Shown: positions 47,673 through 63,486, numbered from the stretch's first letter. The stretch is 64,000 nt of DNA from Planctomycetota bacterium (GCA_044222185.1 JBGANV010000002.1:288001-352000), one strand, 5' to 3'. A program made the numbers and translations. The notes: a model not told the origin generated them from the letters alone.

Positions 47673-48863
47673 TCAGAACTGCAACGAGTCCGTGTTGCTC
47701 GTGTCGAACACCGTGTTCTGGCCCGAGCCCGTCACGACGACGGCCTGGAACCACAGGGTGAGACCCGTGGGGATCATGGCGTTCGGCGGCAGCGCATGCG
47801 ACCGCGTCAGGGTCCCGCCAGCGGGGATCGTTCCAAACATGTGCATCTGGAGCGGCTGACCCAGGCACAGCGAGAGGCTGCCCGGCGGGAACGACAGTGA
47901 CCCGAGATTGCGCGACTCGACGAGGATCACGTGGCCGCCGGCCGTGCCCGTGACGCTCGTGGTGATCGTGCTGCCCGGCGTCACGACGCCGTCAGGCGTG
48001 ATCGTGAGTTGCACCGTCCCCGGCGTGCACGGAGGTGGAGGCGGAGCGGCGGCGAACGTCACCGTCTGCGTGTTGCTCGTGTCGACGGTGGGTGTCGTCG
48101 CACCGCCCGCGATCGTCACGGCCTGGAAGACGCGGACGGTGCCAGCGGGAGCATTCGCAGGCGTCGGGATCTGGATCGTCCGCGTGCCACTGGCAGGAAG
48201 CGGTCCAAGCGGCTGGCTCGTGAACGGGGCGTTCAGGCAGATGACGGTGCCCGCGAGCGGCCCGCCGCCGGGCCCACCGAGCGTCGTTGCGCCGGCGTTC
48301 GGCCCGCTGAAGAGCACGACGTTCGCACCTGCCGCGCCCGTCACCGTCACCGAGAGCGGAGTGCCGGCCGCCGGGTTGCTCGGCGTCACGGCGAGGACGA
48401 CCGTGCCCGGGTTGCACGTGGGCGGCGGCGGCGGCGGTCCCACCGTGGCCGTGACGACGTTGCTGGTGTCGACGGTGTGCGACGGGGACTGCGGGCCACC
48501 CGTCACCGTCACGGCTTGAAAGTTGACCGTGGCGCCGGCGGTGGAGGGCATGGGAACCTGCACCGTGCGCGTCCCCGACTGGGGCAGCATGCCGATCGAC
48601 ATGGAGTTGAATGGTGACGCGAGGCAGATGACGGTGCCGTTCAACGGCCCTTGCCCGGCCAGTGTCGTCTGACCGAGATTGGGACCACGATAGAGGAACA
48701 CGCCAGCGCCAGCCGTGCCGGTCACCGTGACGTTCACCGGCGCGCCCGCCGCTGGACTCGACGGCGACACCGAGAGCACGACGGAACCCGTCGGGCATTG
48801 GCAGATCGCAGCGGCGGCGATCAGCAACGCGGCTGACACCGAAACGAAATGACTGACCTTCAT
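47673..48863 (-). CDS. Secreted protein made of three tandem ~120-aa beta-rich domains joined by poly-Pro linkers
   Basis: Signal peptide, then three repeats C..G.V.L...P..VTG.AG..V.L..CL..P...G..P..GT....FQAV....DTSN. PPPPP linkers. Confidence 0.8.
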   Translation of the reverse strand: MKVSHFVSVSAALLIAAAAICQCPTGSVVLSVSPSSPAAGAPVNVTVTGTAGAGVFLYRGPNLGQTTLAGQGPLNGTVICLASPFNSMSIGMLPQSGTRTVQVPMPSTAGATVNFQAVTVTGGPQSPSHTVDTSNVVTATVGPPPPPPTCNPGTVVLAVTPSNPAAGTPLSVTVTGAAGANVVLFSGPNAGATTLGGPGGGPLAGTVICLNAPFTSQPLGPLPASGTRTIQIPTPANAPAGTVRVFQAVTIAGGATTPTVDTSNTQTVTFAAAPPPPPCTPGTVQLTITPDGVVTPGSTITTSVTGTAGGHVILVESRNLGSLSFPPGSLSLCLGQPLQMHMFGTIPAGGTLTRSHALPPNAMIPTGLTLWFQAVVVTGSGQNTVFDTSNTDSLQF

Positions 48864-50877: not shown

Positions 50878-51717
50878 TCACCCAGGCTTGGTCTCAGTTG
50901 GGATCGCGGCGAGACGGGTGAACGTTCCCGCCTCGTCGACGCTGCCGAACGCGGGCGGTGGGCCCTCGAGCAAGGCGACCCAGTCGGCGGACTCGATCCG
51001 GACGACGTCGATCGACTGGCCGACCTTCGCGGCGAACTCCGCGGTGCCCTGCGCGTCGCGATGGGTGACCGCCACCAAGCGGCGCGTGCGACTCGAGAAG
51101 TCGAGCTCGCGGGCTGCGGCGATGCAGTGCTCACACCCGGGATCGAACACGAACACGTAGGCGTTCGACACTCCCGCGATCCGCACACGATGTTCGACAC
51201 CCGTCGGCGGTGCGCCTGACGCGCAGACCCACGCGACGACGGCGACCACGATGGCACCCGCGGCACTCGTGTGGACGAGCCCGGAGCGGCTCCACTCGCT
51301 GCCGGTCGACAGTCGATGCCAGCGCGCGACGAGCGCGACCGCCAGCAACTCCAACGTCGCGACGACTCCGAGCCATTTCGGCACCGCGGCCCACGCGCCG
51401 AAGCATCCACAACTCGAGCCTCGTGCCCACATCACGAGATGGTGAACGCCCAGGCCCGCAGCGAGGCCGATGGCGCCGCGTGCTCCGACACGGTTTCGGA
51501 CGAACAGCGCGAAGACGCAGGCCAGGGCGTCGACCGCCACGACGATCCCGCCCAGGAGGCGTGCGGGCACGTCGATCCCGTACCCGCTGCGAATCGCATC
51601 GTGAATCTCGGCAGCGGCGACGTGTGGAGCTGCAACCTTGGCGACGAGCGCCACGGCGAAGATCGCGGCCCCGACGAGGCCCGCTGCGGCGATGGCCCTG
51701 GCTCCGTTGATCGTCAC
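50878..51717 (-). CDS. MauE/DoxX-like membrane protein fused to a thioredoxin-like CxxC domain
   Basis: Hydrophobic helices with the MauE-type SCGCFG motif, then FVFDPGCEHC. GTG start overlaps the upstream stop (GTGA). Confidence 0.75.
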   Translation of the reverse strand: MTINGARAIAAAGLVGAAIFAVALVAKVAAPHVAAAEIHDAIRSGYGIDVPARLLGGIVVAVDALACVFALFVRNRVGARGAIGLAAGLGVHHLVMWARGSSCGCFGAWAAVPKWLGVVATLELLAVALVARWHRLSTGSEWSRSGLVHTSAAGAIVVAVVAWVCASGAPPTGVEHRVRIAGVSNAYVFVFDPGCEHCIAAARELDFSSRTRRLVAVTHRDAQGTAEFAAKVGQSIDVVRIESADWVALLEGPPPAFGSVDEAGTFTRLAAIPTETKPG

Positions 51718-52871
51718 GCCGCCGCTCCAGCAGCCTGCCGGCGGCGACGCGCGACGACTCGGGGAACCGCGAACGCGCCCGCGCAGAGAGCGACAACCCC
51801 GAGGGCCCACGCCGCCATGGGGATGGCGTGCGTGTCGCGTCCGGCGCCGAGCTTGGGAGCGCAGGCCGCCAGTCGCTCGATCAGTTCGTCGCCGGAGGTG
51901 GTCCCGTCCGTCGCATAGGACGTCCTGCCCGTTCGACCGTCCAGGATCTTGGCGACGGCACCGAGCTCACGCGCCGGTTCGATGGCGAGCGTCGTGCCCG
52001 CGGGCAGCGGCGCGATGCTCGCCACGTCGACCTTCGACCGCAGCATCCCGAGCCGCGTCCGAAACGAGGCCGCCGTCGGCATCACGACGGGACCGAAGGT
52101 GCGGAAGTCCCCGAATTCGACGACGCGCGCCACTCCACCCTGGATGCCGCCGAGGATCGGAACCACGGGAAAGTCCGGCAGGAGGAGGTCGTTCGGCATG
52201 TTCTCTCCGCCCTCCTGAGGTGCCTTGCAGACGACCGGAGTCTCGAGGAACTCGACGGTCGTGAGTCGCAGTCCTCCGTCGATCCGCTCGAAGTGGCAGC
52301 GCCATCCGAGCAGGCCGGTGACGGCTCGACCGGCCATCGCGGCCTTCACGACCTCCTCGTGGAGTCCGAACAGGACGATCAGTCCCGTGGGCGTTCGCTC
52401 GGCGCTGACGATGGGCGTGCTCTGCACCTGGTCGATCCAGGGCGAGCGCCCGAACGGGCGGAGGTACGCCATCACGGGTGACGTGGACATCTCCACGAAC
52501 TCCTCGTGCGGACGGATGAGCGCGTCGCAGTAGCCTTCACGGCGAGTGTTGAAGATCTGGACGCCGTCGCGCCACGTCGTCACCTGCAGCGGGGTCGATC
52601 CATCCTGCAACGCGAGCTTGGCCCACCGCGCTGCCCCGGTGATCGGATTCCCCTGAACCTCCCACCGGCCGACCTCGTGGACGTTCGAGCCTCCCGCGGC
52701 CGCGGCTTCGCAGCGGTCACGCCATCCGACGTTCCAGGATGGCGCGAGATCGGCCTTCGCGGCCGCGAGCAGGAGAAGCCTCGCCTGCGCGACCGGCAGC
52801 GATTGCGCCGTGGCGCCGGCAGACAGCAGTACGGCCGTGATGACGATCCGAACGTTGTGTTGTCTCGACAT
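51714..52871 (-). CDS. Exported hypothetical protein with C-terminal TM anchor
   Basis: Signal peptide (…LLSAGATA-Q). C-terminal hydrophobic helix followed by RRRR. Tightly coupled to its neighbours. Confidence 0.7.
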   Translation of the reverse strand: MSRQHNVRIVITAVLLSAGATAQSLPVAQARLLLLAAAKADLAPSWNVGWRDRCEAAAAGGSNVHEVGRWEVQGNPITGAARWAKLALQDGSTPLQVTTWRDGVQIFNTRREGYCDALIRPHEEFVEMSTSPVMAYLRPFGRSPWIDQVQSTPIVSAERTPTGLIVLFGLHEEVVKAAMAGRAVTGLLGWRCHFERIDGGLRLTTVEFLETPVVCKAPQEGGENMPNDLLLPDFPVVPILGGIQGGVARVVEFGDFRTFGPVVMPTAASFRTRLGMLRSKVDVASIAPLPAGTTLAIEPARELGAVAKILDGRTGRTSYATDGTTSGDELIERLAACAPKLGAGRDTHAIPMAAWALGVVALCAGAFAVPRVVARRRRQAAGAAA

Positions 52872-52885
52872 GACACTCTCCCCGC

Positions 52886-54520
52886 TCACTGCGGTTCCGC
52901 GACGAATGGGACGGCGAACCGTGTCGGCGAACTGGCCTTCACCTTCACGTCGAAATGGATCTCGCCGACCCCCGACTTCGCCACCCATGCGTCAGGGGCA
53001 GCGATCGAGTACTTCCTGGTCCTCCCCGTGACGTCGTTCGCGTTCACGACGACCCCCTGGCCATCGGCCGATACCGCGACGATCTCGGCCCCCTCGGGAA
53101 CGTCCACCGTGAACTCGCCCGACCAGCCGTGGTCGACCGTTCTCGCGAGGCGAACCACGTCCGGCGTCACGCCGAGTGGCTGAACGACGTTCCAGCGCAC
53201 GACGGTGTCGAGGCTCGTCTGCCCGACGTATGCCGTGATCGCCGCCGACCCAGGTCCAAGTCCGAACGGCTTCACCACGACCTCGGCCATCGTCGCCGTC
53301 GGAAGTTCGGCGACGGGGATTTCCGTCCTTCCATCCGTTCGGATGACCAGCGTCCCGGCACGCTCGACGACCCACGAGATCGGTCCGATCGTCGCCGACG
53401 GCCCCGCCAGGGCGCGTGCACCGTCCGTGAAATGGAGCAGGACCTTCCGCGACGACTCGACGCCAGGCGGGATGTCTCCGAGGTCGATGCTGCCTGCGAG
53501 TTCGAGGCCCTGCACGCGGGCGGCCGGCAGATGAACGGTCACCGTCGTGAGCTTCCCGTCGTCCTGCCGGAAGAACACCAGGATCGTCCGGGGCGTGTTC
53601 GCGACCTCGACATCGAGCGTGCAGACGCGTCGCTCGCCTGGTTCGAGCGGCTTGTCCGTGTGAAAGACGTAGGACGCGCACGTGCAGGACGCGAGCACGC
53701 GGTCGAACTTCACCGGCGACGGGGACTCGTTGACGACCGTGATGTCGTACTTCTGCCGTCCGATGAGCTTGGTGTCGACGGTGATGTCGAGGCCTGGCTC
53801 GAAGCGGAGACCACCGGTGTGTCCCGGCCGGCAGCCACCGAGTGCGACCGTCACCGCGGCGACCGCTGCCACGACTGCCGGACGAAGGCGGAGGTGGCGG
53901 AACTGCCACGCGAGTCCGAGGGCTCCCATCGCGAGGAGGGCAAGCGAGATCCCGCGGCCCCAGGTCATGCGTGGTGGGACTTCGCACAGCAGCATGGCGG
54001 GCAGCAGGTCACCTTTGAACTTCGGCCAGTACGATCCACCGGCGAACATCGGCGGATCGAAGTAGTCGACGCGGTCTCCCCCCGTTCCTCGAATCACGAG
54101 GAAGTGGGCCGGGTTGTCTCCACCGGCGGGGTGTCGGCGGGCGACGATCGCGATCTGATCCGCGGATGGAGCCTCGATGGGCCGCGCCGTCGCGCGAACT
54201 CCGTGCTGGCCCAGAACGCGCTGGATGTCGGCCATCGAGCAAAGGCCCGAAGCGCCGATCCCGAGTTCCTTCTTCAACTCGTCGAAGCCTGGAGAGGCAA
54301 CGTTCAGCAAGGACAGCGCGACGCCGGCGGAATAGGCGCCGCAGTCCTGCTCGAGAACGGCGCCGCGCGGGGTGGCGGTCTCCTGGCCCAAGCCAGCGAC
54401 GACGACTAGCGCGAGAGCGAGCGCCGACCGGAGCGAGATGCACGCGAGCCATCCGTCCTCTCGCATGGCGCGGCGTGCACGAGCAATCTGAGGGGTCGAT
54501 GTTGAGAACATGGGGTTCAC
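52886..54520 (-). CDS. Exported C39-family cysteine peptidase domain fused to DUF1573/Ig-like domains
   Basis: Signal-like N-terminus. EQDCG (Cys), SMADI, AHFLVI (His), YFDPP (Asp). Two hydrophobic segments ending LGGC, then VVNES..ASCTCA..LEPGE (DUF1573-like). Start 54520, 54511 or 54466. Confidence 0.75.
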   Translation of the reverse strand: MNPMFSTSTPQIARARRAMREDGWLACISLRSALALALVVVAGLGQETATPRGAVLEQDCGAYSAGVALSLLNVASPGFDELKKELGIGASGLCSMADIQRVLGQHGVRATARPIEAPSADQIAIVARRHPAGGDNPAHFLVIRGTGGDRVDYFDPPMFAGGSYWPKFKGDLLPAMLLCEVPPRMTWGRGISLALLAMGALGLAWQFRHLRLRPAVVAAVAAVTVALGGCRPGHTGGLRFEPGLDITVDTKLIGRQKYDITVVNESPSPVKFDRVLASCTCASYVFHTDKPLEPGERRVCTLDVEVANTPRTILVFFRQDDGKLTTVTVHLPAARVQGLELAGSIDLGDIPPGVESSRKVLLHFTDGARALAGPSATIGPISWVVERAGTLVIRTDGRTEIPVAELPTATMAEVVVKPFGLGPGSAAITAYVGQTSLDTVVRWNVVQPLGVTPDVVRLARTVDHGWSGEFTVDVPEGAEIVAVSADGQGVVVNANDVTGRTRKYSIAAPDAWVAKSGVGEIHFDVKVKASSPTRFAVPFVAEPQ

Positions 54521-54557
54521 CTCGCATGAGTCCCGAAGAGCACCGCGTCCACCCGTC

Positions 54558-56930
54558 TCAGGGCGACGTCTGGAGCACGCAGCGCACCGCCGCGGGCCAC
54601 GTCGCCTGGATGGTTCGTGCCGCCGGCATCAGCCAGCGCGACGCGAGATCGAGCGATCGAACGGGCCATCGGCCGATGCGGTCAACGAGAAGGCGGCACT
54701 GCGCAGTCGCCGTTACACCTTCGGGGGCGAGATCGTGAGTGTCGCGAGCCGGCACGGCCCGGAGGCCCGACGGCCCGCTCCTCACCTCGCGAACGTCGAG
54801 CGTCGGACCGCCGACGCAGACGAGGACCGGCATCACGGGATGGCAGCCCAGCAGGAGCGAGTCGCCCGTTCGGAGGACGGGCGCCAACATCACCCCGCAA
54901 TCGAGGTCGTAGGCCGCCAAGACCAGCTCGTGCTCGAGGAGCGGTCCGTCGAGCTGGACCCGCTGTTGCGCGCTGCTTTCCGGAAGTTGCCAATCGCCAC
55001 GCGTGGGTAGCTCAGAGCCTGGAACGAAGAGCGCGGTGGAACCGCAGCGCAGGCGAAGTCCCTGGCCCCCGCATCGGCGGACTCGCAAGGTCCCCGATGG
55101 ATCCGTCCGGACGACCGCCTCGTGAAACGCGACCGCAGGTACGACCGACACGACGACGTCGCAGGATGCGAGGGGCGCTCCACCGTGGCCCCTGATGGTG
55201 ATCTCGAGAGCCGGGCCCGCATCTCCGCCGACCCGGCCCAGGTCGACGACGGCGTCCGTCTCGACGTTCACCTTGCGAGACCAGAGGCTCCCATCGTCGA
55301 AGCGCGCCGCGACGACGTACTCACCCGGCGTGAGAGCGTCGAAGCGGAACGCCGTTCGGGGCTCCACACGGCGCTCCCTGTGCATCGTCGACCACGCATC
55401 CGCGGTGGGAATCACCGCGACGACACCGGACGCCCCGGCAACTCCGCAGACGCTGCCCGCACCGACGTCGTCGAGCGAGATCTGCGCCGTCTCTCCGTCT
55501 CGGACGACGAGTCGGCGGGAGACGCCCAGGCCATCCACGACCAGGGTGTAGGTGCCCGGCGGAAGCCAGTATTCGCGCGCATTCCCATCGATGCGATTCG
55601 CCGCTGCGACGGCCCCATACCTCGTTTCCAGGAGGGCGAGGCGGCGTGACTCCAATCGTGACGGGTCCGCGCTCGTGACGCGAACGCGCCCGCCGAAGTC
55701 ACCGAGCTCGATGGCGCGCGGCGCAGCGGACGCGAGCGCACCGACCTGGAAGGGTCGACTCACGCCTTGGAATCCAAAGAATCGGACGGGATCCGTGGGA
55801 TCGGGCCGGCGGCCGAGCACGACCGTGACGAGGCCATCGCCGTCCGTCCGCGCCTTCACCAGCTCCGCGCCGATCGACGCCTGGACGATTCCGTGGGAGA
55901 TCGACTGCGCCCCCGTGACGAGTCGAGCGCGCAGCGCTTCGATCGCGCCGAATTCCAGGAATGCGACGCGACCCTCGTCGGCGTCCGTCGGTGTCGCGTT
56001 CGCGCGGATCACGGCAGCGCCGTTCATGCGGACGGCACCCGTGATCGTCCGAGTCTCGGGGTCCTGGACCTCGAGCATTCCCATCCCGAACCTCAGGTCG
56101 ACGGGGCCGCGGCCCACGGACACCGAATCGGCTTGGATGTCGACATCGGTGAGCGTCGTGTGCTCGAAGCTCGCCAAGGCTGGAACGCTGACCGTCACGG
56201 CAAGGACGCGCGTCGCCTGGATTCGGATCAGCAGGTCCGTCTCACCGGGCGTCACACGCTCGCGGACGCGCACGATCCCATCCCGAGTCGCCTCGACGAA
56301 TGCGGAATCGAACGAACGGACGCCCTCGTACCGGAACGCGCCCTGCGCGTCCGCGGTCGTTGGATACATCCGGTCGGACGTGACGAGCGCGATCCGGGCC
56401 CCACCCGCGGGAGCACCGGCGGCGTCGACGACTCGGCCGGCGACGGACGTCGACCCCTTCAGCCCGACGACGACGCGATTCTGCCCGCAGTCGAGCGACA
56501 GATTCCGTTCCGCATCGGCGTAGCGGTGATGACGCACGACGAGCCGCACGCAATCGTCGACGCGCTCGACGTCGAGTCGCGCCCGGCCGGCTCCGTCGGT
56601 GAGCGCGATCGGTGGCGCGGATGGGGGATTCGAGAAGCTCGCAACGACGGTGGCTCCTTCGATCGGGTCGAGGGTCGATTCGTCGCGGACGACGACGTCG
56701 ATCGACCCGCTACCGGGGCCAGCGAACGGTCGCGGGCGCACGGATGCCGCGGTCGGGTGTCTCCACGTGTCCGTCGCGCTCGCAAGGTCGCCGAGCGCAG
56801 CGGACGGAGACGGGAGGTCGGTCCGCGTCGGCGCCGACCCGGTGTCGTCCATCACGGCGGCCGTCGCCAGGAGCGTTGCAACGAGTGCCGCGGCCGGGAG
56901 CCACGTCACCGCGCGAGGTCGTTTCGTCAT
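54558..56930 (-). CDS. Exported carboxypeptidase-regulatory-like repeat protein
   Basis: GGAGG RBS, N-terminal hydrophobic segment, VRDE..PIEGATV..TDGAG and VAGRVVDAAGAPAGGARI motifs. Confidence 0.7.
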   Translation of the reverse strand: MTKRPRAVTWLPAAALVATLLATAAVMDDTGSAPTRTDLPSPSAALGDLASATDTWRHPTAASVRPRPFAGPGSGSIDVVVRDESTLDPIEGATVVASFSNPPSAPPIALTDGAGRARLDVERVDDCVRLVVRHHRYADAERNLSLDCGQNRVVVGLKGSTSVAGRVVDAAGAPAGGARIALVTSDRMYPTTADAQGAFRYEGVRSFDSAFVEATRDGIVRVRERVTPGETDLLIRIQATRVLAVTVSVPALASFEHTTLTDVDIQADSVSVGRGPVDLRFGMGMLEVQDPETRTITGAVRMNGAAVIRANATPTDADEGRVAFLEFGAIEALRARLVTGAQSISHGIVQASIGAELVKARTDGDGLVTVVLGRRPDPTDPVRFFGFQGVSRPFQVGALASAAPRAIELGDFGGRVRVTSADPSRLESRRLALLETRYGAVAAANRIDGNAREYWLPPGTYTLVVDGLGVSRRLVVRDGETAQISLDDVGAGSVCGVAGASGVVAVIPTADAWSTMHRERRVEPRTAFRFDALTPGEYVVAARFDDGSLWSRKVNVETDAVVDLGRVGGDAGPALEITIRGHGGAPLASCDVVVSVVPAVAFHEAVVRTDPSGTLRVRRCGGQGLRLRCGSTALFVPGSELPTRGDWQLPESSAQQRVQLDGPLLEHELVLAAYDLDCGVMLAPVLRTGDSLLLGCHPVMPVLVCVGGPTLDVREVRSGPSGLRAVPARDTHDLAPEGVTATAQCRLLVDRIGRWPVRSLDLASRWLMPAARTIQATWPAAVRCVLQTSP

Positions 56931-57030
56931 GTTCCCCTCCTGGGCCGCGGGGAGCGACGCGTCGCGGGTCACCGGCGCATCGCCCACCGCCGACGTCGAG
57001 GACGGACGCCCCGATCGAGCCGTCACGAGT

Positions 57031-57549
57031 TCAGCCGCAGCTGAAGGCCGCACACGGCATGGTCGCGTTCGGGACGGGAACGCACGCCGCGCCGATGCAG
57101 AGGTGCGTCGTCTTGCCGGGTGCGCACGTGACTCCGGAGTCCGTCGCGGTGATCGTGCAGCTCCCCTGCCCGGCCGTTCCGCAGTCCAGGATCGTCGCGT
57201 TCGGGTCACACGAGCTCGGCTCGTTCGAGGTGGTGCAGAACTTCACGTACTTCTCGTTGTTGCAACCACTCGATGGACACGTCTGCTGCGTGTAGGGGCA
57301 CGGTCCGCACGAACGCGTGTTCTTGTTGCAGTACGAGCCGCGCTGCATCCAGGACGTGCAGCTCTCGTTGCCTGGCCAGCACTGCTTGTACACGAGCGTC
57401 AAGCCGCCTCCGGCGACCTGCCCGCCGATGATCCCGCCGAGCGACAGACCGTCCTTCGAATCCGGGCCGCTCTCCGGTGCGCCATTCATCAGGCCAAGAA
57501 CGCCCGAAATGACCAACGCCGCACTCGCGACGAACTTGATGGAATTCAT
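57031..57549 (-). CDS. Secreted cysteine-rich small protein (putative precursor peptide, 172 aa, 16 Cys)
   Basis: GGAGG RBS, signal peptide MNSIKFVASAALVISGVLGLMNG, Gly-rich segment ending QVAGGG, then a domain with 16 cysteines. Confidence 0.8.
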   Translation of the reverse strand: MNSIKFVASAALVISGVLGLMNGAPESGPDSKDGLSLGGIIGGQVAGGGLTLVYKQCWPGNESCTSWMQRGSYCNKNTRSCGPCPYTQQTCPSSGCNNEKYVKFCTTSNEPSSCDPNATILDCGTAGQGSCTITATDSGVTCAPGKTTHLCIGAACVPVPNATMPCAAFSCG

Positions 57550-57981: not shown

Positions 57982-58908
57982 CTATTTCGAGAACTTGTTG
58001 GCCTTGCGATTGCCGAGTCGAAGCTTGTCCTCGAGATGCGAGCGAAGCGCGGCGTAGAAGTCTCGCAGGAAGCGATCGACGTCGACCTTGCGCGGGTCGC
58101 CATCCCAGCGAATGCGCTGCTGGATGCGCTCGGCGACGGCTCGGCGCGTCACCTGGGCGTCGACGGCATCGTCACGGCGCAGGACCTGTTCGAGCACCTG
58201 AAGCTCGTACTCGCCGTAGATCGCCAGCTGCGGGGGCGTGAACTCGTATCGCGCCGCGGTCGCCGCCTTCCGTGTCGCCCGACTCAGGTCCGCAAGCAAC
58301 GTCGCCTTCGGAGCGAGGACCACGCGCGTCCCACCCACCAGATCGCCGATGCGGAGCCGGTCCCGGTTGAAGATCGGCAAGCCCATGAAGATGAGGAGCC
58401 AGACCAGGGCGGCGAATCGCAACCACCCTGGCACCCCGGGGAAGAACGTGCTCGACCCGAACGTGAGAGCGAGCGGGAGGACCACCTCCACGTTTCGAAC
58501 GAGGTTGCGGGCGAAGATCGCCTCCGACAGCAGTTGGCCGCCGCGCGCATCGATCACCCGCAGACCGAGCATGCGCTTGCCCGGCGTCCGGCCCTGCCAG
58601 CGGATCTCGAACCACGGAAAGTAGGCGTTGATCAACAGGAACACGCCCAGGGTTGCGACGGTCATTCCCACCTCGCCCGAGGCCATCGCCGACGCCACCG
58701 CGAGCGTCACCACGAGAACGAGCGCGAGAACGATGATCACGGCATCCACGAGGAACGCCGCCGCCCGCTCGCCCGCGGACGCCAGAGTCACGCAGATCGG
58801 TACACCCTCGGGCGTGATGATCTCGCGCATTCGCAACGCGCGTGCGAATTCACCGACGCTCGCCCCGGGGATCAAGTGCGGCCCGTGGCCGGCGGCGACG
58901 GGCCTCAC
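57982..58908 (-). CDS. RDD family membrane protein
   Basis: TPEGV..LASAGERAAAFLVD, GRTPGKRMLGLRVID and RIGDLVGGT motifs. GTG start overlaps the upstream stop. Confidence 0.88.
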   Translation of the reverse strand: MRPVAAGHGPHLIPGASVGEFARALRMREIITPEGVPICVTLASAGERAAAFLVDAVIIVLALVLVVTLAVASAMASGEVGMTVATLGVFLLINAYFPWFEIRWQGRTPGKRMLGLRVIDARGGQLLSEAIFARNLVRNVEVVLPLALTFGSSTFFPGVPGWLRFAALVWLLIFMGLPIFNRDRLRIGDLVGGTRVVLAPKATLLADLSRATRKAATAARYEFTPPQLAIYGEYELQVLEQVLRRDDAVDAQVTRRAVAERIQQRIRWDGDPRKVDVDRFLRDFYAALRSHLEDKLRLGNRKANKFSK

Positions 58909-59894
58909 GCGGCCCTCCGCATGGGCCGTACGCCCAGGTAGAGGTACCACGCACAGGCGAACGCGAGCGCGACGGTCCATCGCACGGACGTGCTGGTGAC
59001 GGCCCCGCGAAACACGCCCTCCATCACGCCTGCGATCAGGAACATGACCATGGCTCCCGTCGCCACGCGGCCGGCTTCACGGCCGGCGACGAGCAGATTG
59101 TCGACCCGACTCATCCGGCCTGGAAACACCAACGCCTGACCGAGGACGAGTCCCGCGCCGCCACACAGGATGATCGCCAGGATCTCCGTGACCCCGTGAG
59201 GCAAAACCCATCCCCAGAACTCCACGCTCAGGCCGCGCGACATGAAGAGTGCGCCAAACGCCCCGAGCATGAGCCCATTCGTGAACATCAGGTACAGCGT
59301 GATGATTCCCCCCGCGAAGCCCAGCGCGAACGACCAGATCCCGATCTGCGCGTTGTGCGTGAAGAGCATGGTGGCGAATCCGCCGCTCGCCGACGCCTGG
59401 AAGAGCGTCGACCGCAGCGTCTCGGTCGACGCCGTCGGATCGCGACCCGAGGCGAGGTCGGCATCCACGAACGAGTAGAACCACTCGGGATCGCGTGCCG
59501 TCAGCACCCAACTCGTCAACCCACCGATGAGGAAGAGGCTCCAGGCCAGAAGCATGTGGTTTCGGTAGCGCCGAACGGCGGAGGGGAATCCCCACCGGAC
59601 GAACTCGCCCACGACGGCGAACGGATGGCGGCGAGTTCCATACACGCAGAAGTATGCCCGAAGCGTGAGCGCTTCCAGGTACTCGACCAGGTTGCGGTCC
59701 AGGGAGATCGCGCGCGCGAGGCTGAGGGACGACACGGCCTGACGGTAGAGGCGCGGCAGGTCGGAGAGATCCTCCGGTGCGAGGCCGCGGACGTTCCGCG
59801 AGCGCTCCGCGCGTTGCACGAGCTCTTCCAGCCGTTGCCAGGACGCCTGACGCTCGTGTCGGAATTGGAAGCTCTTCAGTCCCGCGTCGTCCAT
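58905..59894 (-). CDS. Stage II sporulation protein M (DUF95)-like membrane protein
   Basis: WQRLE..LYR, LFTHN, NGLMLG, LPHGVTE and IAGVMEG motifs. Standard member of MoxR operons. Confidence 0.88.
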   Translation of the reverse strand: MDDAGLKSFQFRHERQASWQRLEELVQRAERSRNVRGLAPEDLSDLPRLYRQAVSSLSLARAISLDRNLVEYLEALTLRAYFCVYGTRRHPFAVVGEFVRWGFPSAVRRYRNHMLLAWSLFLIGGLTSWVLTARDPEWFYSFVDADLASGRDPTASTETLRSTLFQASASGGFATMLFTHNAQIGIWSFALGFAGGIITLYLMFTNGLMLGAFGALFMSRGLSVEFWGWVLPHGVTEILAIILCGGAGLVLGQALVFPGRMSRVDNLLVAGREAGRVATGAMVMFLIAGVMEGVFRGAVTSTSVRWTVALAFACAWYLYLGVRPMRRAA

Positions 59895-61204
59895 CAGATC
59901 CGCTCCCGCCGCTTGATGTCGAGATAGGTCGAGAGGAGCTGCGCCGAGAGCTCGCCCGGGGCGCACTCGAGGCACATGGCGCCCGCGCGTCGGAGCCGCG
60001 TGAAGACGACCTCGCGCTCGCGGAGGAAGTCGCCGGCGACGGCGGCCCTGTGAACGTCCTCCATTGCCTGGAACGGCGCCTGGACGAGGGCAGTGAGCGC
60101 CGGATCACGCATGGACACGAAGAGTACGAGATGCCGCGTGGCGAGGTGTCCCACGGTTTCGAGCATGAGGCGCGCAGCCACGTCATCCACGAAGTCGGTC
60201 AACAAGACGACGAGCGACCGCCGCCGGAGCCGCGTACCCAGGACCGAGATCGCCAGCGTGTAATTCGATTCGTCCGTCGAGTACGCGAGCTCGCTCGACC
60301 TCTGCCGCAGAAGCCCGAAGCTCTTCGCGCCAGAGACGGGCTCGACCCAGGACCCTGGACGCGCGCCGAACGAATACAGTCCGATGCGATCGCCGCTCCG
60401 CAGCCCGCCCCAGGCGAGGAGGAGTCCGGCGGTGATCGCGTGGTCGAGCCGAGGCACACCGTTCAGGGGCTCGGCCATGAGGTGCCCCGTGTCGATGGCG
60501 ATCACGACCTGCTGATCGCGCTCGGCACGGAACTCCTGGCTGAGGAGCTTGCGGTGACGCGCCGAGGCCTTCCAGCTTATGGCTCGGTGATCGAGGCCTG
60601 GCACGTAATCCCGGAGCGAGTCGAACTCCGATCCTTCCCCGACGAACCGCATGCGCTTCGGCCCGAACCAGGCTTCGCGATTGCGCGCCACCGTGATCGC
60701 CGCCGTGTGCACGGGTTTCAGGTTCGGAACCACGATGACCTCGTGCGCGGTGTTCACCAGTTTGCGGCGTTCGAAGAGGCCGAACGGGCCTTGCCAGCGC
60801 AGCCACACTCGCTCGATCCGGCCGACACCCCGACGGCGCGCCATCAGCGGAACGGAAGCAAGGGCACGCCCGTCCGCACCCGTCGTCACGACGACGCCCG
60901 CGATCGGAGCGAAGAGCTCGTTGACCTCGCAGAGCATGGCCAGCCGGAGCCGCGAGCGCGACCCGGCGATGATGGTGACGTGGCACGCTCCGGCGGAACC
61001 GATCTCCAACGACTTCGGCGCCTGCGACTCGACGATCACGCGAGCGGCCGGCACCGCGAGCGTCAGGTCGATGACCATGAGGGCGACGATCAGCGCGGTC
61101 ACGGCAACCGCGGCGAGCCACAGCCCCGGCGCCACGAGCGCGGGAAGCAACGCCACGGGCAGCGCGGCGAGGAGGAGAAGGACGGCTCGGATCGTCGGGA
61201 CCAT
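59894..61204 (-). CDS. DUF58 domain protein
   Basis: GSEFDSLRDYVPG, ISWKASAR, IDTGHLM, GDRIGL and LVVLLTD motifs. Confidence 0.9.
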   Translation of the reverse strand: MVPTIRAVLLLLAALPVALLPALVAPGLWLAAVAVTALIVALMVIDLTLAVPAARVIVESQAPKSLEIGSAGACHVTIIAGSRSRLRLAMLCEVNELFAPIAGVVVTTGADGRALASVPLMARRRGVGRIERVWLRWQGPFGLFERRKLVNTAHEVIVVPNLKPVHTAAITVARNREAWFGPKRMRFVGEGSEFDSLRDYVPGLDHRAISWKASARHRKLLSQEFRAERDQQVVIAIDTGHLMAEPLNGVPRLDHAITAGLLLAWGGLRSGDRIGLYSFGARPGSWVEPVSGAKSFGLLRQRSSELAYSTDESNYTLAISVLGTRLRRRSLVVLLTDFVDDVAARLMLETVGHLATRHLVLFVSMRDPALTALVQAPFQAMEDVHRAAVAGDFLREREVVFTRLRRAGAMCLECAPGELSAQLLSTYLDIKRRERI

Positions 61205-61210
61205 GCTGTT

Positions 61211-62167
61211 TCAGCGTGGAGCGGGAACTTCCGCCAGCACCTGCCCGATCACCGCCTCCGGCGCGATGCCGTCGATCTCGGCACTGGGCGACATCAGGAT
61301 GCGGTGGCGCAACGCCGGCAGCGCCACGCGCTTCACGTCGTCAGGTACGACGAACTCGCGCCCGTCGAGGGCTGCCGCCGCGCGACTCGCCGTCGTCAAC
61401 ATGTTCGTCGATCGCGGCGACGCCCCGCAGAGCAGCGAGCTGTTCTGCCGCGTCGCTCGCACGATGTCGACGGCGTAGTCGATGATGGGATCGGCCAGCG
61501 TGATGTTCGCCAGAGCCGCGCGGGCCTCCGAGAGCGCCGGGCCGTCGGCCACGGGCGTCACGCCGAACGCGTGCGGATCCGCGAGCACCGTTCGGCTTCC
61601 GTGCAGGCGGACCATGGCGCGCTCCTCGTCCCGCGACGGATACCCAACCGGGATCTTGAACATGAAGCGGTCGAGCTGAGCTTCGGGGAGCGGATAGGTG
61701 CCCTCCTGTTCGATGGGGTTCTGCGTGGCGATGACGAGGAACCACGCGCCGAGCGGATGCGTCTTTCCGTCGATCGACACCGCCTGCTCCTGCATCGCCT
61801 GGAGGAGCGCCGCCTGCGTCTTCGGCGGCGTACGGTTGATCTCGTCTGCGAGGAGGAGGTCCGTGAAGATCGGCCCTTTCACCAAGGAGAAGGTGTTCGA
61901 CTGGAAGTTGAACAGGTTCGTGCCGAGGACGTCGCCCGGCATGAGGTCCGGGGTGAACTGGATTCGATTGAACGCCAGTGCGAGTGCCGATGCGAACGAA
62001 CGCGCGAGCAGCGTCTTCGCCGTTCCCGGCACGCCTTCCAGGAGGACGTGGCCGTTGCACAACAACGCCATCATGAAGAGATCGATGGCGTCGTCGTGAC
62101 CGACGATCACCTTGCGGACCTCCGCGCGCAGGCGTTCACCGAGGGCTTGGATCTCGACGGGGGTCAT
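61211..62167 (-). CDS. moxR: MoxR family AAA+ ATPase
   Basis: [62 protein letters not shown] and GASPR. Confidence 0.93.
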
Positions 62168-63486
62168 AAGTCTCCTGATGAGGATTGGACCGCGCCGGCG
62201 TCGCGAGGCAGGGCGGGTGTTCGTGACGTGGTGATGCGGCCTTTGTGTGCAAGTCCCCGGGGATCGAACTCCCGGGCCCACTGCTGGAGGCGGCGTGCGA
62301 GTTCGAGGAAGGTGTCGGGCGACGCCTTGCGGTCACGGCGCGCGGCGCCGATCTCTCCCGTCAACTTCGCGAAGTCGTCGGTCGTACCACGGGCCATCCC
62401 CAGTCGGGCGAGCGCCGGAACCAGAGTCTTGCGGTCGCCACGCAGATCGGCCGGCACCTGGCGAGCCGCCTCGTGCGTCACCTGATCGAGGATCCGGCGC
62501 AGGGACTCACCGTGGTGGCCCGCATGCGCGAGCAGTGACGCGGTGTTCTCGATGAGGAATGCCTTGCCCACCTCGAAGGGCGGAGCGAGCGGCGCAGGCG
62601 ATCCGAATCGGCGAGCTCCGGCCCACAACGCGAGCACCGCCGCGAGGAGGAACTGCACCGTGGCGACCACCAGGGGAAACTCGAAGAGCGTTCGGAAGAA
62701 CGACGTGGGCCGCACGAAGCCATGGATCGTCTCGTCGATGACGATGGGAGACCACCGTGTGGACCGGACCCGGTCGATGATCTTCAACGCCAGCGCGGCG
62801 TTGTCCCCGGCGTGCAGGCCATGGTTCTCGAAGATGTCGGGATCGGAGACGACGACGAGATGGGTTCCATCCACCTCGGTCTCGCCCACGAGGATCTGGC
62901 CGGCATTCGAGAGGATCGGTTTCAACGCGCCGGACCGGAGGAGTTGCGGCTGGGTCAACGTCGGGCGGGGGAAATCACCGGTCCATGCGTCGACCATCAC
63001 CGGCGCCGGCACCACGGTGACGCCGCGAACGAACGGCACGAGCACGCCCTCGATCGCCCGGATCGGTATGGGCGTGACCTTCTCCACCTCGGTCTCGTTG
63101 GTGGGGCTCGGGAATCCCCGCCATTTCGGAAGCACGAGCAGGACCTCGCTCGCTTCCCGCACGATCGCTGCGAGAGCACTCGCGTGAGTCGCGCCACCCG
63201 AAGTCACGTTCGGCTCCAGGACCACGACGGCGCCGTCCTCGCCGGCGCGCTCCACCGATCTGGCACGGCTCGTGATCACCGGGAGTTTCATCTCGCGCAG
63301 CAGCTCGACGAACGCGTGATGCCCGATGGCGGAGCGGCTGTACCCATTGGCCGCGACGGCCTGTTCGGCGTTCTCCGACCTGGCCAGGGTCCCAGCGGCG
63401 AAAGCGCAAACGAGGGAGACCACTCCCGACGTCACGAGGATCCCGGTCATACGGCGGGAGAAGATCGGTGGGTCTGAGTCGGTCAC
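62164..63486 (-). CDS. DUF4350-like membrane protein of the MoxR operon
   Basis: N-terminal [18 protein letters not shown]...DNA, IDETIHG, TM then RRFG. Overlaps the moxR start. Confidence 0.75.

Follow-up and report, generated by a model that had tools for sequence, protein, structure and literature searches.

A five-gene cassette in a Planctomycetota genome predicted to mature a disulfide-rich, double-glycine-leader protein outside the cytoplasm

The combination of a double-glycine leader with a C39 peptidase is the textbook signature of export coupled to an ATP-binding cassette (ABC) transporter, as known for bacteriocins, signaling peptides and RiPPs (peptides made on the ribosome and modified after translation), and this coupling is what genome-mining tools seek. 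A 64,000-nucleotide stretch of the genome of a Planctomycetota bacterium (GCA_044222185.1 JBGANV010000002.1:288001-352000), which is the window referred to below and from whose first letter all window positions are counted, contains at 50878-57549 a cassette in which both elements are found on proteins with signal-like N-termini. Translation of the window gave five open reading frames (ORFs) at this site, all on the minus strand, in agreement with the five co-oriented genes claimed in an earlier note on this DNA made from its sequence alone. In order of transcription, they encode a small Cys-rich protein (P0001), a large repeat protein (P0005), an exported C39 peptidase fused to a DUF1573 domain (P0002), a protein without assigned family (P0003) and a MauE-like protein with a thioredoxin domain (P0004; Table 1). 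The gaps between the genes are, in order, 100 bp, 37-46 bp and 11-14 bp, and the last pair overlaps. The spacing that the note gave for the last three genes, 14 bp or an overlap, stands as it is for P0002 and P0003, and for P0003 and P0004 it holds with a GTG start at 51717, when the overlap is 4 bp (GTGA). This GTG is the likely start of P0004, because the GTGA overlap takes in the TGA stop codon of P0003 and the same 4-bp overlap is present in the orthologous gene pair of another genome, G013. The cassette is a single copy in the genome (7.08 Mb, completeness 93.8%). By Pfam scan, an ABC gene is found neither among the five cassette genes nor among the flanking genes, the five cassette proteins and the flanking proteins have no match to a methylamine dehydrogenase (MADH) family, and PADLOC gave no matches for the five proteins.

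The N-terminal domain of P0002 is, as judged from sequence comparisons, a divergent but genuine C39 peptidase in which the catalytic pair is intact. A phmmer search of 1.84 billion representative sequences gave 41 relatives of P0002 at E<=1e-3, including 18 at E<=1e-10 and ~16 that are full-length (490-555 aa). In an alignment of 23 relatives the only invariant columns are those of Cys60 (DCGAY context) and His139 (HFVV context), and both residues are also invariant in seven domain sequences. A profile of seven N-terminal domains, with that of P0002 as the first row, matched 11 PDB sequences at E<=0.01, all of which are double-glycine peptidase domains of the peptidase-containing ABC transporter (PCAT) or ABC transporter maturation and secretion (AMS) type, with LahT150 (1.4e-6), ComA (2e-5) and PCAT1 (2.5e-5) among them. 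The Peptidase_C39 cut-off of Pfam is passed by 12 of the 18 family members scanned (26.9-59.3 bits; those from other genera scored, for example, 55.7 and 59.3), and the assignment as a genuine C39 domain follows from these scores together with the invariant Cys and His and the PDB matches. The DUF1573 family scored 40.2, 28.9 and 55.7 bits in aligned relatives of P0002 (cut-off 26.1). The C39-DUF1573 fusion described in the note is thereby confirmed in both its parts through relatives, P0002 taken alone being sub-threshold.

The C39 domain is predicted to face the periplasm, given the N-terminal signal-like segment of P0002 and the transmembrane (TM) segment that follows the domain and is itself followed by Arg or Lys. 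This arrangement is general in the family, with a hydrophobic segment upstream of the catalytic Cys in 22 of 27 C39 ORFs and a TM segment downstream of the domain in 24 of 27, mostly with Arg or Lys after it, while AxA-type signal-peptide ends are found in several stand-alone versions. The location outside the cytoplasm that the note had proposed for this peptidase is therefore supported, as a prediction, by both the signal-like N-terminus and the downstream helix. Pfam gave no C39 match in the 93.8% complete genome, and the domain profile matched only P0002; as no other C39 domain was found, no PCAT is available to process P0001, and the view that an ABC exporter is not involved gains support from the lack of a second C39 domain in the genome and of any ABC gene at the locus.

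The second membrane helix of P0002 ends in a lipobox-like LGGC whose Cys is present in 19/19 aligned relatives that span the site. In split versions of the protein, of which that in G322 is one, the DUF1573 gene begins with its own lipoprotein signal. P0002 thus looks from its sequence like a fusion of the peptidase with a downstream lipoprotein, in which the LGGC would be a retained lipoprotein signal; the DUF1573 part was probably a separate lipoprotein originally and may still be split off at the internal lipobox. More generally, C39 fusions keep the targeting signal of the partner in mid-chain, either a lipobox (..LGGC) before DUF1573 or an N_methyl motif before DUF1559 (window 53831-53878; L043, L055, L057, L058, L059), which suggests that such proteins could be polyproteins that are split after membrane insertion.

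The evidence that connects this peptidase to the small Cys-rich protein comes from 28 loci with a C39 gene, comprising the window, seven loci obtained by a full-length alignment search of 401 genomes of the phylum, and 20 loci from family f7, where 151 genomes were searched and 43 of the 151 matched; among the 68 matches listed, 15 lie in open frames of at least 730 aa. The phylum label rests on the source name of the G304 protein and on Atlas taxa. At all but two of the 28 loci (26) the C39 gene is accompanied, at a distance of 0-2626 bp, by a small ORF rich in Cys (8-16 Cys), so such ORFs are also found beside homologous C39 genes elsewhere in Planctomycetota. The Cys-rich ORFs number 27, a tandem pair being present at one locus; 21 of them, from 20 loci, conform to [LIVMFA]xx[LIVMFAT]xG[GA] no more than 16 residues before the first Cys of the core; three further ORFs (L006, L063, L042) have a GG or GA that was recognized by eye. 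At the positions that the pattern leaves free, Leu is preferred at -12 (11/21, with Val in three more), Ser at -11 (8/21) and Glu at -8 (8/21), and these preferences identify the leader as of the classical LSxxELxxIxGG type. Examples, with a slash at the end of the leader, are ..LSFEQLHAITGG/GDC, ..LATELAAIQGG/V and ..LSTAEMHSIVGG/L, and one leader has a weak match, short of the cut-off, to the CCRG-2 model for RiPP leaders in NCBIfam (E 5.5e-4). A hydrophobic, signal-like segment of ~14-20 residues precedes the leader in every such precursor. Bacteriocin-type leaders lie at the very N-terminus and are not known to have a Sec signal or a hydrophobic segment ahead of them.

The leader motif is concentrated at these loci. 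A stricter form of the pattern gave 14 matches at 13 of 27 loci (350,057 bp) vs. six in all six frames of the whole 7.08-Mb genome, of which one is P0001 itself and the others are not at protein N-termini. This makes the motif ~57x commoner per base in the loci than in the whole genome, a ratio to be read with the differing GC contents of the genomes and their relatedness in mind. Behind the conserved leader, the mature parts are predicted to span 94-136 aa and to contain 8-16 Cys, an even number in 20 of 21, and the cores differ strongly between lineages. None of 17 precursors from family f7 matches Pfam and none of the 17 matches NCBIfam, and the precursors of the earlier set of loci are likewise without a match. 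The order of the genes also differs between lineages, which argues that the pairing of C39 gene and precursor gene is kept by function and not only by inherited synteny. The functional link between the Cys-rich protein and the exported C39 peptidase that the note had assumed is accordingly well supported, with an adjacent ORF at 26 of 28 loci and, at 20 loci, a GG-leader-like motif behind a signal-like segment, and we infer from the sequences that the C39 domain cleaves the precursor after Gly-Gly. At L041 (G114:C1, 4904-6084, minus strand), ~2 kb away from the main cassette, a stand-alone DUF1573 gene directly adjoins a second ORF that is rich in Cys and bears a signal (146 aa, 11 Cys); this ORF has no C39 gene to itself.

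In the cassette itself, P0001 was confirmed as the secreted-looking protein of 172 aa with 16 Cys that had been described, its N-terminus being hydrophobic and signal-like. All 16 Cys are within residues 57-171, and a Gly-rich stretch, ..DGLSLGGIIGGQVAGGG.., lies between the hydrophobic N-terminus and the Cys region. A cut after G43 would place Ile at -4 and Leu at -7, as in the 21 related precursors, and this is the most likely cleavage site by comparison, with cuts after G39 or G48/49 also possible. A predicted complex of the C39 domain with the P0001 leader scored 0.01, which counts neither for nor against cleavage. Homologs of P0001 are present in G013 (E 4e-22) and in G304, and of the 16 Cys columns 15 do not vary among the three homologous proteins, which indicates that the small ORF is a real, conserved gene; the sequence GGAGGA, which resembles a Shine-Dalgarno site, lies upstream of its ATG. 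P0001 had no match in Pfam, NCBIfam, PDB or Atlas, and its family consists of only four clusters. A prepilin-type signal in the precursor was considered and rejected, as the hydrophobic part precedes the Gly here and follows it in prepilins, and a lipoprotein precursor was rejected as there is no Cys behind the hydrophobic segment. P0001 also has three N-x-S/T sequons (NES, NAT and NAT), and genes for PMT_2-type glycosyltransferases lie on the same strand beside the cassette at two of the 20 f7 loci (L054, 2884-5660, together with a GT2 gene, and L061, 3511-4920), so that the product might conceivably be glycosylated.

The last gene of the cassette was described in the note as encoding a MauE-like protein with a CxxC thioredoxin domain, and this is borne out by CGCFG at residues 134-138, CEHC at residues 226-229 and the modeled fold. 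Against the MauE family (PF07291; cut-off 27), P0004 scored 23.8 bits as a whole and 26.5 bits with its N-terminal 170 aa, and it was not among the matches listed by a MauE family search of the whole genome. An AlphaFold2 (AF2) model has six helices, at low confidence, before a soluble domain (residues 203-310) with a predicted local distance difference test (pLDDT) score of ~65-83 and the order beta-alpha-beta-alpha-beta-alpha-beta-beta, in which CEHC follows the strand of residues 217-221 and so occupies the position of the thioredoxin active site. Pfam gave no match for this part. By VIA-align, the soluble domain aligned over 100-108 residues with ResA (2f9s), CcmG (1kng), 4grf and 3eur (Z 8.2-8.6, root-mean-square deviation ~3 A), and most of the top 30 structural matches are thioredoxin folds, with the qualification that a Z near 8 is only moderately above the background of the tool. 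A 2026 preprint reports that MauE proteins replace DsbB in E. coli, that their active site is CXC followed by Phe-Gly, that MauD is the thioredoxin-like partner for the MADH small subunit with its six disulfides, and that 8.2% of the MauE entries in InterPro carry a fused domain of the thioredoxin family (10.64898/2026.03.05.709764). On that account, the MauE-thioredoxin fusion is an already known architecture.

Elsewhere the genome encodes a canonical MauE (83 bits, G000:C8:113904-114293), beside which P0004 looks like a dedicated extra copy, and no match to the DsbB or VKOR families was found in the genome. A canonical MauE with no DsbB or VKOR match is what would be expected if, as the preprint claims, MauE can be the general disulfide-forming enzyme. 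PF02975 (MADH light chain) has no match in the genome, and it also has none in 14 control genomes. Membership in the mau operon was considered and rejected. Of the oxidative folding that the note ascribed to this protein, a plausible disulfide-forming module remains, on the basis of the CXC-FG motif, the TlpA/ResA-like fold and the replacement of DsbB by MauE that the preprint reports (10.64898/2026.03.05.709764), while its place as a core part of the system does not. Other thiol-redox genes found at the loci are a MauE-like/TM/CxxC protein (ESCGCLG ... CDKC) directly upstream of the precursor gene at L062, in a distant genus (G453), for which BLAST against P0004 was not significant (E 0.06), and Redoxin and AhpC-TSA genes at L053. 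From their occurrence at the loci, thiol-redox genes recur as accessories and do not belong to the core.

The remaining two proteins are also candidates for accessories. P0005 exceeds the PF13620 cut-off and is thus the carboxypeptidase-regulatory-like repeat protein that had been claimed; a syntenic homolog is present in G013 (E 9e-15) and similar large proteins at L038, L040 and L042. P0003 has both the signal peptide and the C-terminal TM segment that had been read from its sequence, and matched no family in Pfam or NCBIfam. Its homologs are in G013 (E 3e-35) and G304, its relatives in Atlas are unnamed Planctomycetota clusters only, a LolA/TP_0789-like assignment at 0.85 is a weak lead only, and its AF2 model (pLDDT 40.6) was unusable. 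In family f7 the C39 peptidase is usually encoded by a stand-alone gene of ~200 aa, followed by a DUF1573 lipoprotein gene and then by a prepilin-type N_methyl/DUF1559 gene; DUF1573 is adjacent or fused at 12 of the 20 f7 loci, as is the pilin-like N_methyl/DUF1559 gene (12/20), and there is an accompanying protein of ~330-480 aa that belongs to no known family. In other genera the C39 domain is fused to a prepilin-type protein with the N_methyl motif kept. The DUF1573 part, P0003 and the CarboxypepD_reg protein may serve as scaffold, chaperone, immunity or onward-export factors. For the display or export by Ig/prealbumin-fold proteins that the note had envisaged, no evidence was found. L059 (7244-10282, minus strand) has a set of P0003-like, C39-DUF1559 and DUF1573 genes that is preceded on its own strand, 1.4 kb upstream, by a gene for a secretin (Secretin_N, E 3e-51).

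Table 1. Genes, domains and predicted processing products of the cassette, with positions in the window.
Feature	Position	Strand	Basis or characteristics
P0001 precursor gene, 172 aa	57031..57549	minus	Signal-like N-terminus, Gly-rich propeptide with double-glycine motif, 16-Cys core
Predicted pre-pro region of P0001, residues 1-43	57421..57549	minus	Hydrophobic segment residues 6-21, then ..DGLSLGGIIGG; proposed cut after G43
Predicted mature protein, residues 44-172, 129 aa, 16 Cys	57034..57420	minus	Comparison with related precursors
P0005, 790 aa, secreted CarboxypepD_reg / Ig-like repeat protein	54558..56930	minus	PF13620 64.6 bits, E 1.1e-17, two stretches, cut-off 32.3
P0002, 544 aa (541 aa from ATG 54511, the database form)	52886..54520	minus	Exported C39, two TM helices, internal lipobox, DUF1573, further beta-rich domains
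C39-like domain of P0002, ~residues 45-185	53966..54388	minus	Cys60 (QDCGAY), His139 (AHFLVIR), Asp155 (YFDPP)
TM hairpin of P0002: TM1 residues 191-207, RHLRLR loop, TM2 residues 215-230 ending in lipobox-like LGGC	53831..53950	minus	Sequence
DUF1573 of P0002 (Ig-like; SCTC residues 278-281) and two beta-rich C-terminal domains	52889..53803	minus	Pfam scores of relatives
P0003, 386 aa (385 aa from ATG 52871)	51714..52874	minus	Signal-like N-terminus, C-terminal hydrophobic helix, then RRRR
P0004, MauE-like membrane domain and thioredoxin fold	50878..51810 (from GTG 51717: 279 aa)	minus	Sequence, model
SSCGCFG of P0004, CXC-FG motif of MauE (Cys134, Cys136)	51397..51417	minus	Match to the active-site motif in preprint 10.64898/2026.03.05.709764
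Thioredoxin-fold domain of P0004, residues 203-310, C226-E-H-C229	50881..51204	minus	AF2 model, structure alignment

The occurrence of the locus is sporadic. Of 40 related genomes searched with P0002, only G013, from another family of the same order, gave a match (E 1.4e-49), apart from a second, weak match to the DUF1573 part only, and among the 22 other genomes searched within the order, one has the cassette. In G013 the whole set of five is present, in unchanged order and between different flanks, at E values of 4e-22 for the Cys-rich protein and then 9e-15, 1.4e-49, 3e-35 and 2e-24 for the others, and this conserved order indicates that the grouping is not due to chance. Four of the five genes recur in G304, which has Cys-rich, CarboxypepD-like, C39-DUF1573 and P0003-like genes, together with a MauE protein that is above the cut-off (36.8 bits) and lacks the thioredoxin domain and a second large CarboxypepD_reg protein. 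Other searches were less productive: word-index protein searches with P0002 and with the P0003 alignment returned nothing beyond the query, pattern scans of genome contigs gave either nothing or the G013 contig only, and when the five proteins of the cassette were compared by tblastn with the first seven related loci, four of the five matched G013 alone, the links being found by reading the ORFs. A metagenome scan gave one locus (L044), which was cut short and uninformative; its C39 gene (2553-3541) is shortened at ~170 aa, and the DNA that follows resembles a tRNA-type sequence on the other strand, so that an insertion or rearrangement is possible. The notion of five genes that form one conserved system could not be maintained, with a MauE/thioredoxin gene at five of the 28 loci and CarboxypepD_reg proteins at five of the eight loci from the full-length query and none seen at the 20 f7 loci. 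On these sequence-based counts the five-gene set is lineage-specific, and the MauE-thioredoxin and CarboxypepD_reg proteins are accessories and not the core.

Taken together, we consider it reasonably probable, from what the sequences encode, that the cassette serves to mature, outside the cytoplasm, a small secreted protein rich in disulfides, using Sec for export, the C39 peptidase for the double-glycine cut and P0004 for disulfides. We infer the Sec export, the topology, the cleavage site, the formation of disulfides by P0004, the lipobox processing and the function of the product in the following manner. The 172-aa precursor would cross the inner membrane by the Sec pathway via its hydrophobic N-terminus, leaving behind the signal a short propeptide that ends in a double-glycine motif (..LSLGGIIGG). 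This motif would be recognized and cut by the C39 domain of P0002, exported and held by its TM hairpin at the outer face of the inner membrane, and the cut would free the 129-aa core with its 16 Cys. Disulfides in the core would be formed by P0004, in which a divergent MauE domain would act as a DsbB-like, quinone-linked CXC oxidase together with the TlpA/ResA-like CxxC domain. As for function, the mature protein most probably acts as a released effector, whether bacteriocin-, signal- or adhesin-like, with cores that vary strongly behind a conserved leader.

The cassette resembles the PCAT/AMS enzymes (ComA, LahT, PCAT1 and CvaB) in having a homologous peptidase domain with the catalytic Cys and His kept, a leader of the LSxxELxxIxGG type directly before the mature part, and a protease gene beside variable precursor genes. 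In contrast to these enzymes, P0002 continues after the peptidase domain into a TM hairpin and DUF1573 and has no ABC domains (TMD or NBD), and the precursors have a Sec-type segment before the leader and yield, instead of short peptides, mature parts of 94-136 aa that contain 8-16 Cys. The peptidase domain of a PCAT is cytoplasmic, according to a paper on FapD (PMC5557850), while the cassette peptidase has its own signal peptide and TM anchor and is predicted to be periplasmic. Contrary to the impression given by the note, an extracytoplasmic C39 peptidase has a precedent. The same source describes FapD of the Pseudomonas fapABCDEF amyloid operon as a Sec-exported, periplasmic C39 protein whose catalytic Cys is required, whose substrate is there given as unidentified, and whose Fap partners there lack a canonical double-glycine leader (PMC5557850). 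By description rather than by sequence, FapD and P0002 are alike in that an exported C39 domain acts with no ABC transporter, FapD being stand-alone. They differ in that the partners in the cassette have a canonical leader and are Cys-rich rather than amyloid repeats, and in that the peptidase is anchored in the membrane and in many cases shares its chain with DUF1573 or a pilin-like protein.

For P0004 the closest comparison is with MauE/MauD, with which it shares a MauE-like domain with CGCFG and a CxxC thioredoxin partner, here fused, as well as a proposed client that would be a small multi-disulfide protein like the MADH small subunit. It differs from them in being just under the Pfam cut-off and in a genome with a separate canonical MauE. 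The VKOR-thioredoxin and DsbB/DsbA systems likewise combine a membrane, quinone-linked oxidase with a periplasmic CxxC thioredoxin fold, and fusions of this kind are noted in the MauE preprint (10.64898/2026.03.05.709764), but the membrane part of P0004 is MauE-like. The fold of its soluble domain matches the ResA/CcmG/TlpA type, of which many are reductants, and the roles of oxidase and isomerase are both possible. The label RiPP-like in the note was overstated, as the only modifying enzyme present is the disulfide module.

Several observations weigh against maturation of P0001 by P0002 and P0004 as set out above. P0002 itself is below the Pfam cut-offs, with 15.2 bits for Peptidase_C39 (PF03412; E 0.02, N-terminal 200 aa) vs. 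22 and 15.6-16.7 bits for DUF1573 (PF07610) vs. 26.1. With the positions of the third catalytic Asp and the oxyanion Gln, which we take from ComA, the Asp155 column is mostly Ser in relatives and there is no conserved Gln upstream of the catalytic Cys. The leader of P0001 is a weak example of its kind, as it has GG at three sites and lacks both Glu at -8 and Leu at -12. The survey adds two loci of 28 with no Cys-rich ORF (L048, a short contig, and L059) and three Cys-rich ORFs of 27 with no GG or GA motif (L040, L061 and L062), and a MauE/thioredoxin-type gene was present in the span covered at only five of the 28 loci. The 20 f7 loci were hand-picked from the best-scoring rows of non-PCAT length and come from related genomes, so the counts are not independent, and the P0003 group and the positional partners in f7 have no profile similarity (hhalign probability 3%), for which reason homology between them is not claimed. 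A further objection comes from G013, whose C39 gene (locus L006) starts at the equivalent of residue 114, so that ~113 codons including that of the catalytic Cys are gone. At this partly decayed-looking locus (G013:C41, 8731-10522, minus strand) the similarity to P0002 stops at ~residue 442, where similarity to P0003 starts (residue 134) in another frame, and it seems from the sequence that a ~700-bp deletion has brought about an out-of-frame junction between the DUF1573 and P0003-like genes. G013 nevertheless has intact genes for the precursor and the MauE-thioredoxin protein, and the cluster can, on this sequence, either persist with a dead protease or be a copy in decay.

Among the alternatives, it is possible, if unlikely, that the locus directs the assembly of an envelope or surface structure, in which the C39 cut would be a checkpoint of assembly or secretion, as has been proposed for FapD in the export of Pseudomonas amyloid, and the Cys-rich protein would be a structural or adhesive subunit, acting together with the Ig-like DUF1573 and CarboxypepD_reg proteins and, in f7, with pilin-like DUF1559 proteins, rather than a released effector. 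The recurrence of non-enzymatic Ig-like and pilin-like partners at the f7 loci, the CarboxypepD_reg proteins at the loci from the full-length query, the translational fusion of C39 to DUF1573 or to prepilin-type proteins and the secretin gene near one locus are all consistent with such a role, and FapD is a Sec-exported C39 protein that is needed for fiber secretion (PMC5557850). Against this are the canonical bacteriocin-type leaders of the precursors, which the Fap proteins lack in that same account (PMC5557850), the sporadic occurrence of the locus within the order, and the strong variability of the cores, which, together with the lack of Pfam and NCBIfam matches among the f7 precursors and the four clusters of the P0001 family, fits effectors better than structural subunits.

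It is rather improbable that the C39-like domain acts instead on another partner (its own fusion partner, P0003 or a pilin-like protein), or is a non-proteolytic binder like the C39-like domains of RTX exporters, with the GG sequences being no more than flexible linkers behind an ordinary signal peptide. The degenerate Gly-rich stretch of P0001 (GG..GG..GGG) would fit a linker, as would the Cys-rich ORFs that lack the motif and the retention of the precursor in G013 after the loss of the catalytic Cys, and the substrate of FapD is, in the published account, likewise unidentified and lacking a canonical GG leader (PMC5557850). On the other hand, the invariance of Cys and His across the 23 relatives argues for catalysis, the residues at the free leader positions (-12 Leu, -11 Ser, -8 Glu) reproduce the C39 recognition motif as a linker would not, and the motif is enriched at the loci over the whole genome. 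Finally, it is extremely improbable that the five genes are neighbors by chance or that the small ORF is not a real gene, for although high-GC DNA gives many spurious ORFs and the sequencing runs listed for the source are of DNA only, from sludge and bioreactor metagenomes, the five genes have the same order between different flanks in G013, the Cys columns of P0001 are conserved behind a GGAGGA, and the pairing of the genes recurs in a different order in many genera.

Maturation of a Sec-exported precursor by the C39 peptidase of the cassette is thus the reading that we prefer, and a broader scheme can be offered more tentatively, as a doubtful extension of it. This would be a widespread and so far unrecognized two-step pathway of the Planctomycetota for disulfide-rich miniproteins, with the double-glycine leader behind the Sec signal, in which the periplasmic C39 domain, the DUF1573 lipoprotein, the pilin-like DUF1559 protein and the partner of ~350-480 aa would form a new envelope machine that couples leader removal, disulfide folding and outer-membrane passage, and in which the fusions with an internal lipobox or prepilin signal would be polyproteins cut by LspA or prepilin peptidase once inserted.

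The surroundings of the cassette are unrelated to it. Upstream, a row of genes for a MoxR AAA ATPase, a DUF58 (VWA-like) protein, a SpoIIM-like protein and an RDD protein (window 57982-62281, minus strand) lies 432 bp from the cassette and is not beside the cassette in G013, and downstream there is a convergent aldehyde dehydrogenase gene. Elsewhere in the window (47673-48863, minus strand) lies a gene for a secreted-looking protein of 396 aa with three tandem repeats of ~130 aa, PPPPP linkers, conserved Cys in each repeat and no Pfam match. A scan for promoters and terminators gave nothing that exceeded the shuffled expectation.

In the literature outside subscription journals, no description was found of an exported C39 peptidase paired with Cys-rich proteins that carry a Sec signal and a GG leader, nor of C39-DUF1573 or C39-DUF1559 proteins. 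What appears to be new is the combination, recurring in Planctomycetota, of a GG leader behind a Sec signal on disulfide-rich proteins with an adjacent exported and anchored C39 peptidase, often with DUF1573 and pilin-like partners. The leader and protease pair of ABC-coupled export appears here to be shifted to the periplasm and uncoupled from the ABC exporter, with Sec as the membrane step. If this is true, there would be a second, Sec-dependent route for substrates with double-glycine leaders, and the poorly understood class of periplasmic C39 peptidases would gain clear candidate substrates. Some genomes that carry such loci, G114, G488 and G509 among them, are assembled completely or into a single contig and so may stem from cultured strains, which would make the proposal testable at the bench. 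The dedicated MauE-thioredoxin disulfide module would also acquire a natural client, and the Planctomycetota would hold a large pool of unannotated, hypervariable, disulfide-rich secreted proteins of natural-product interest.

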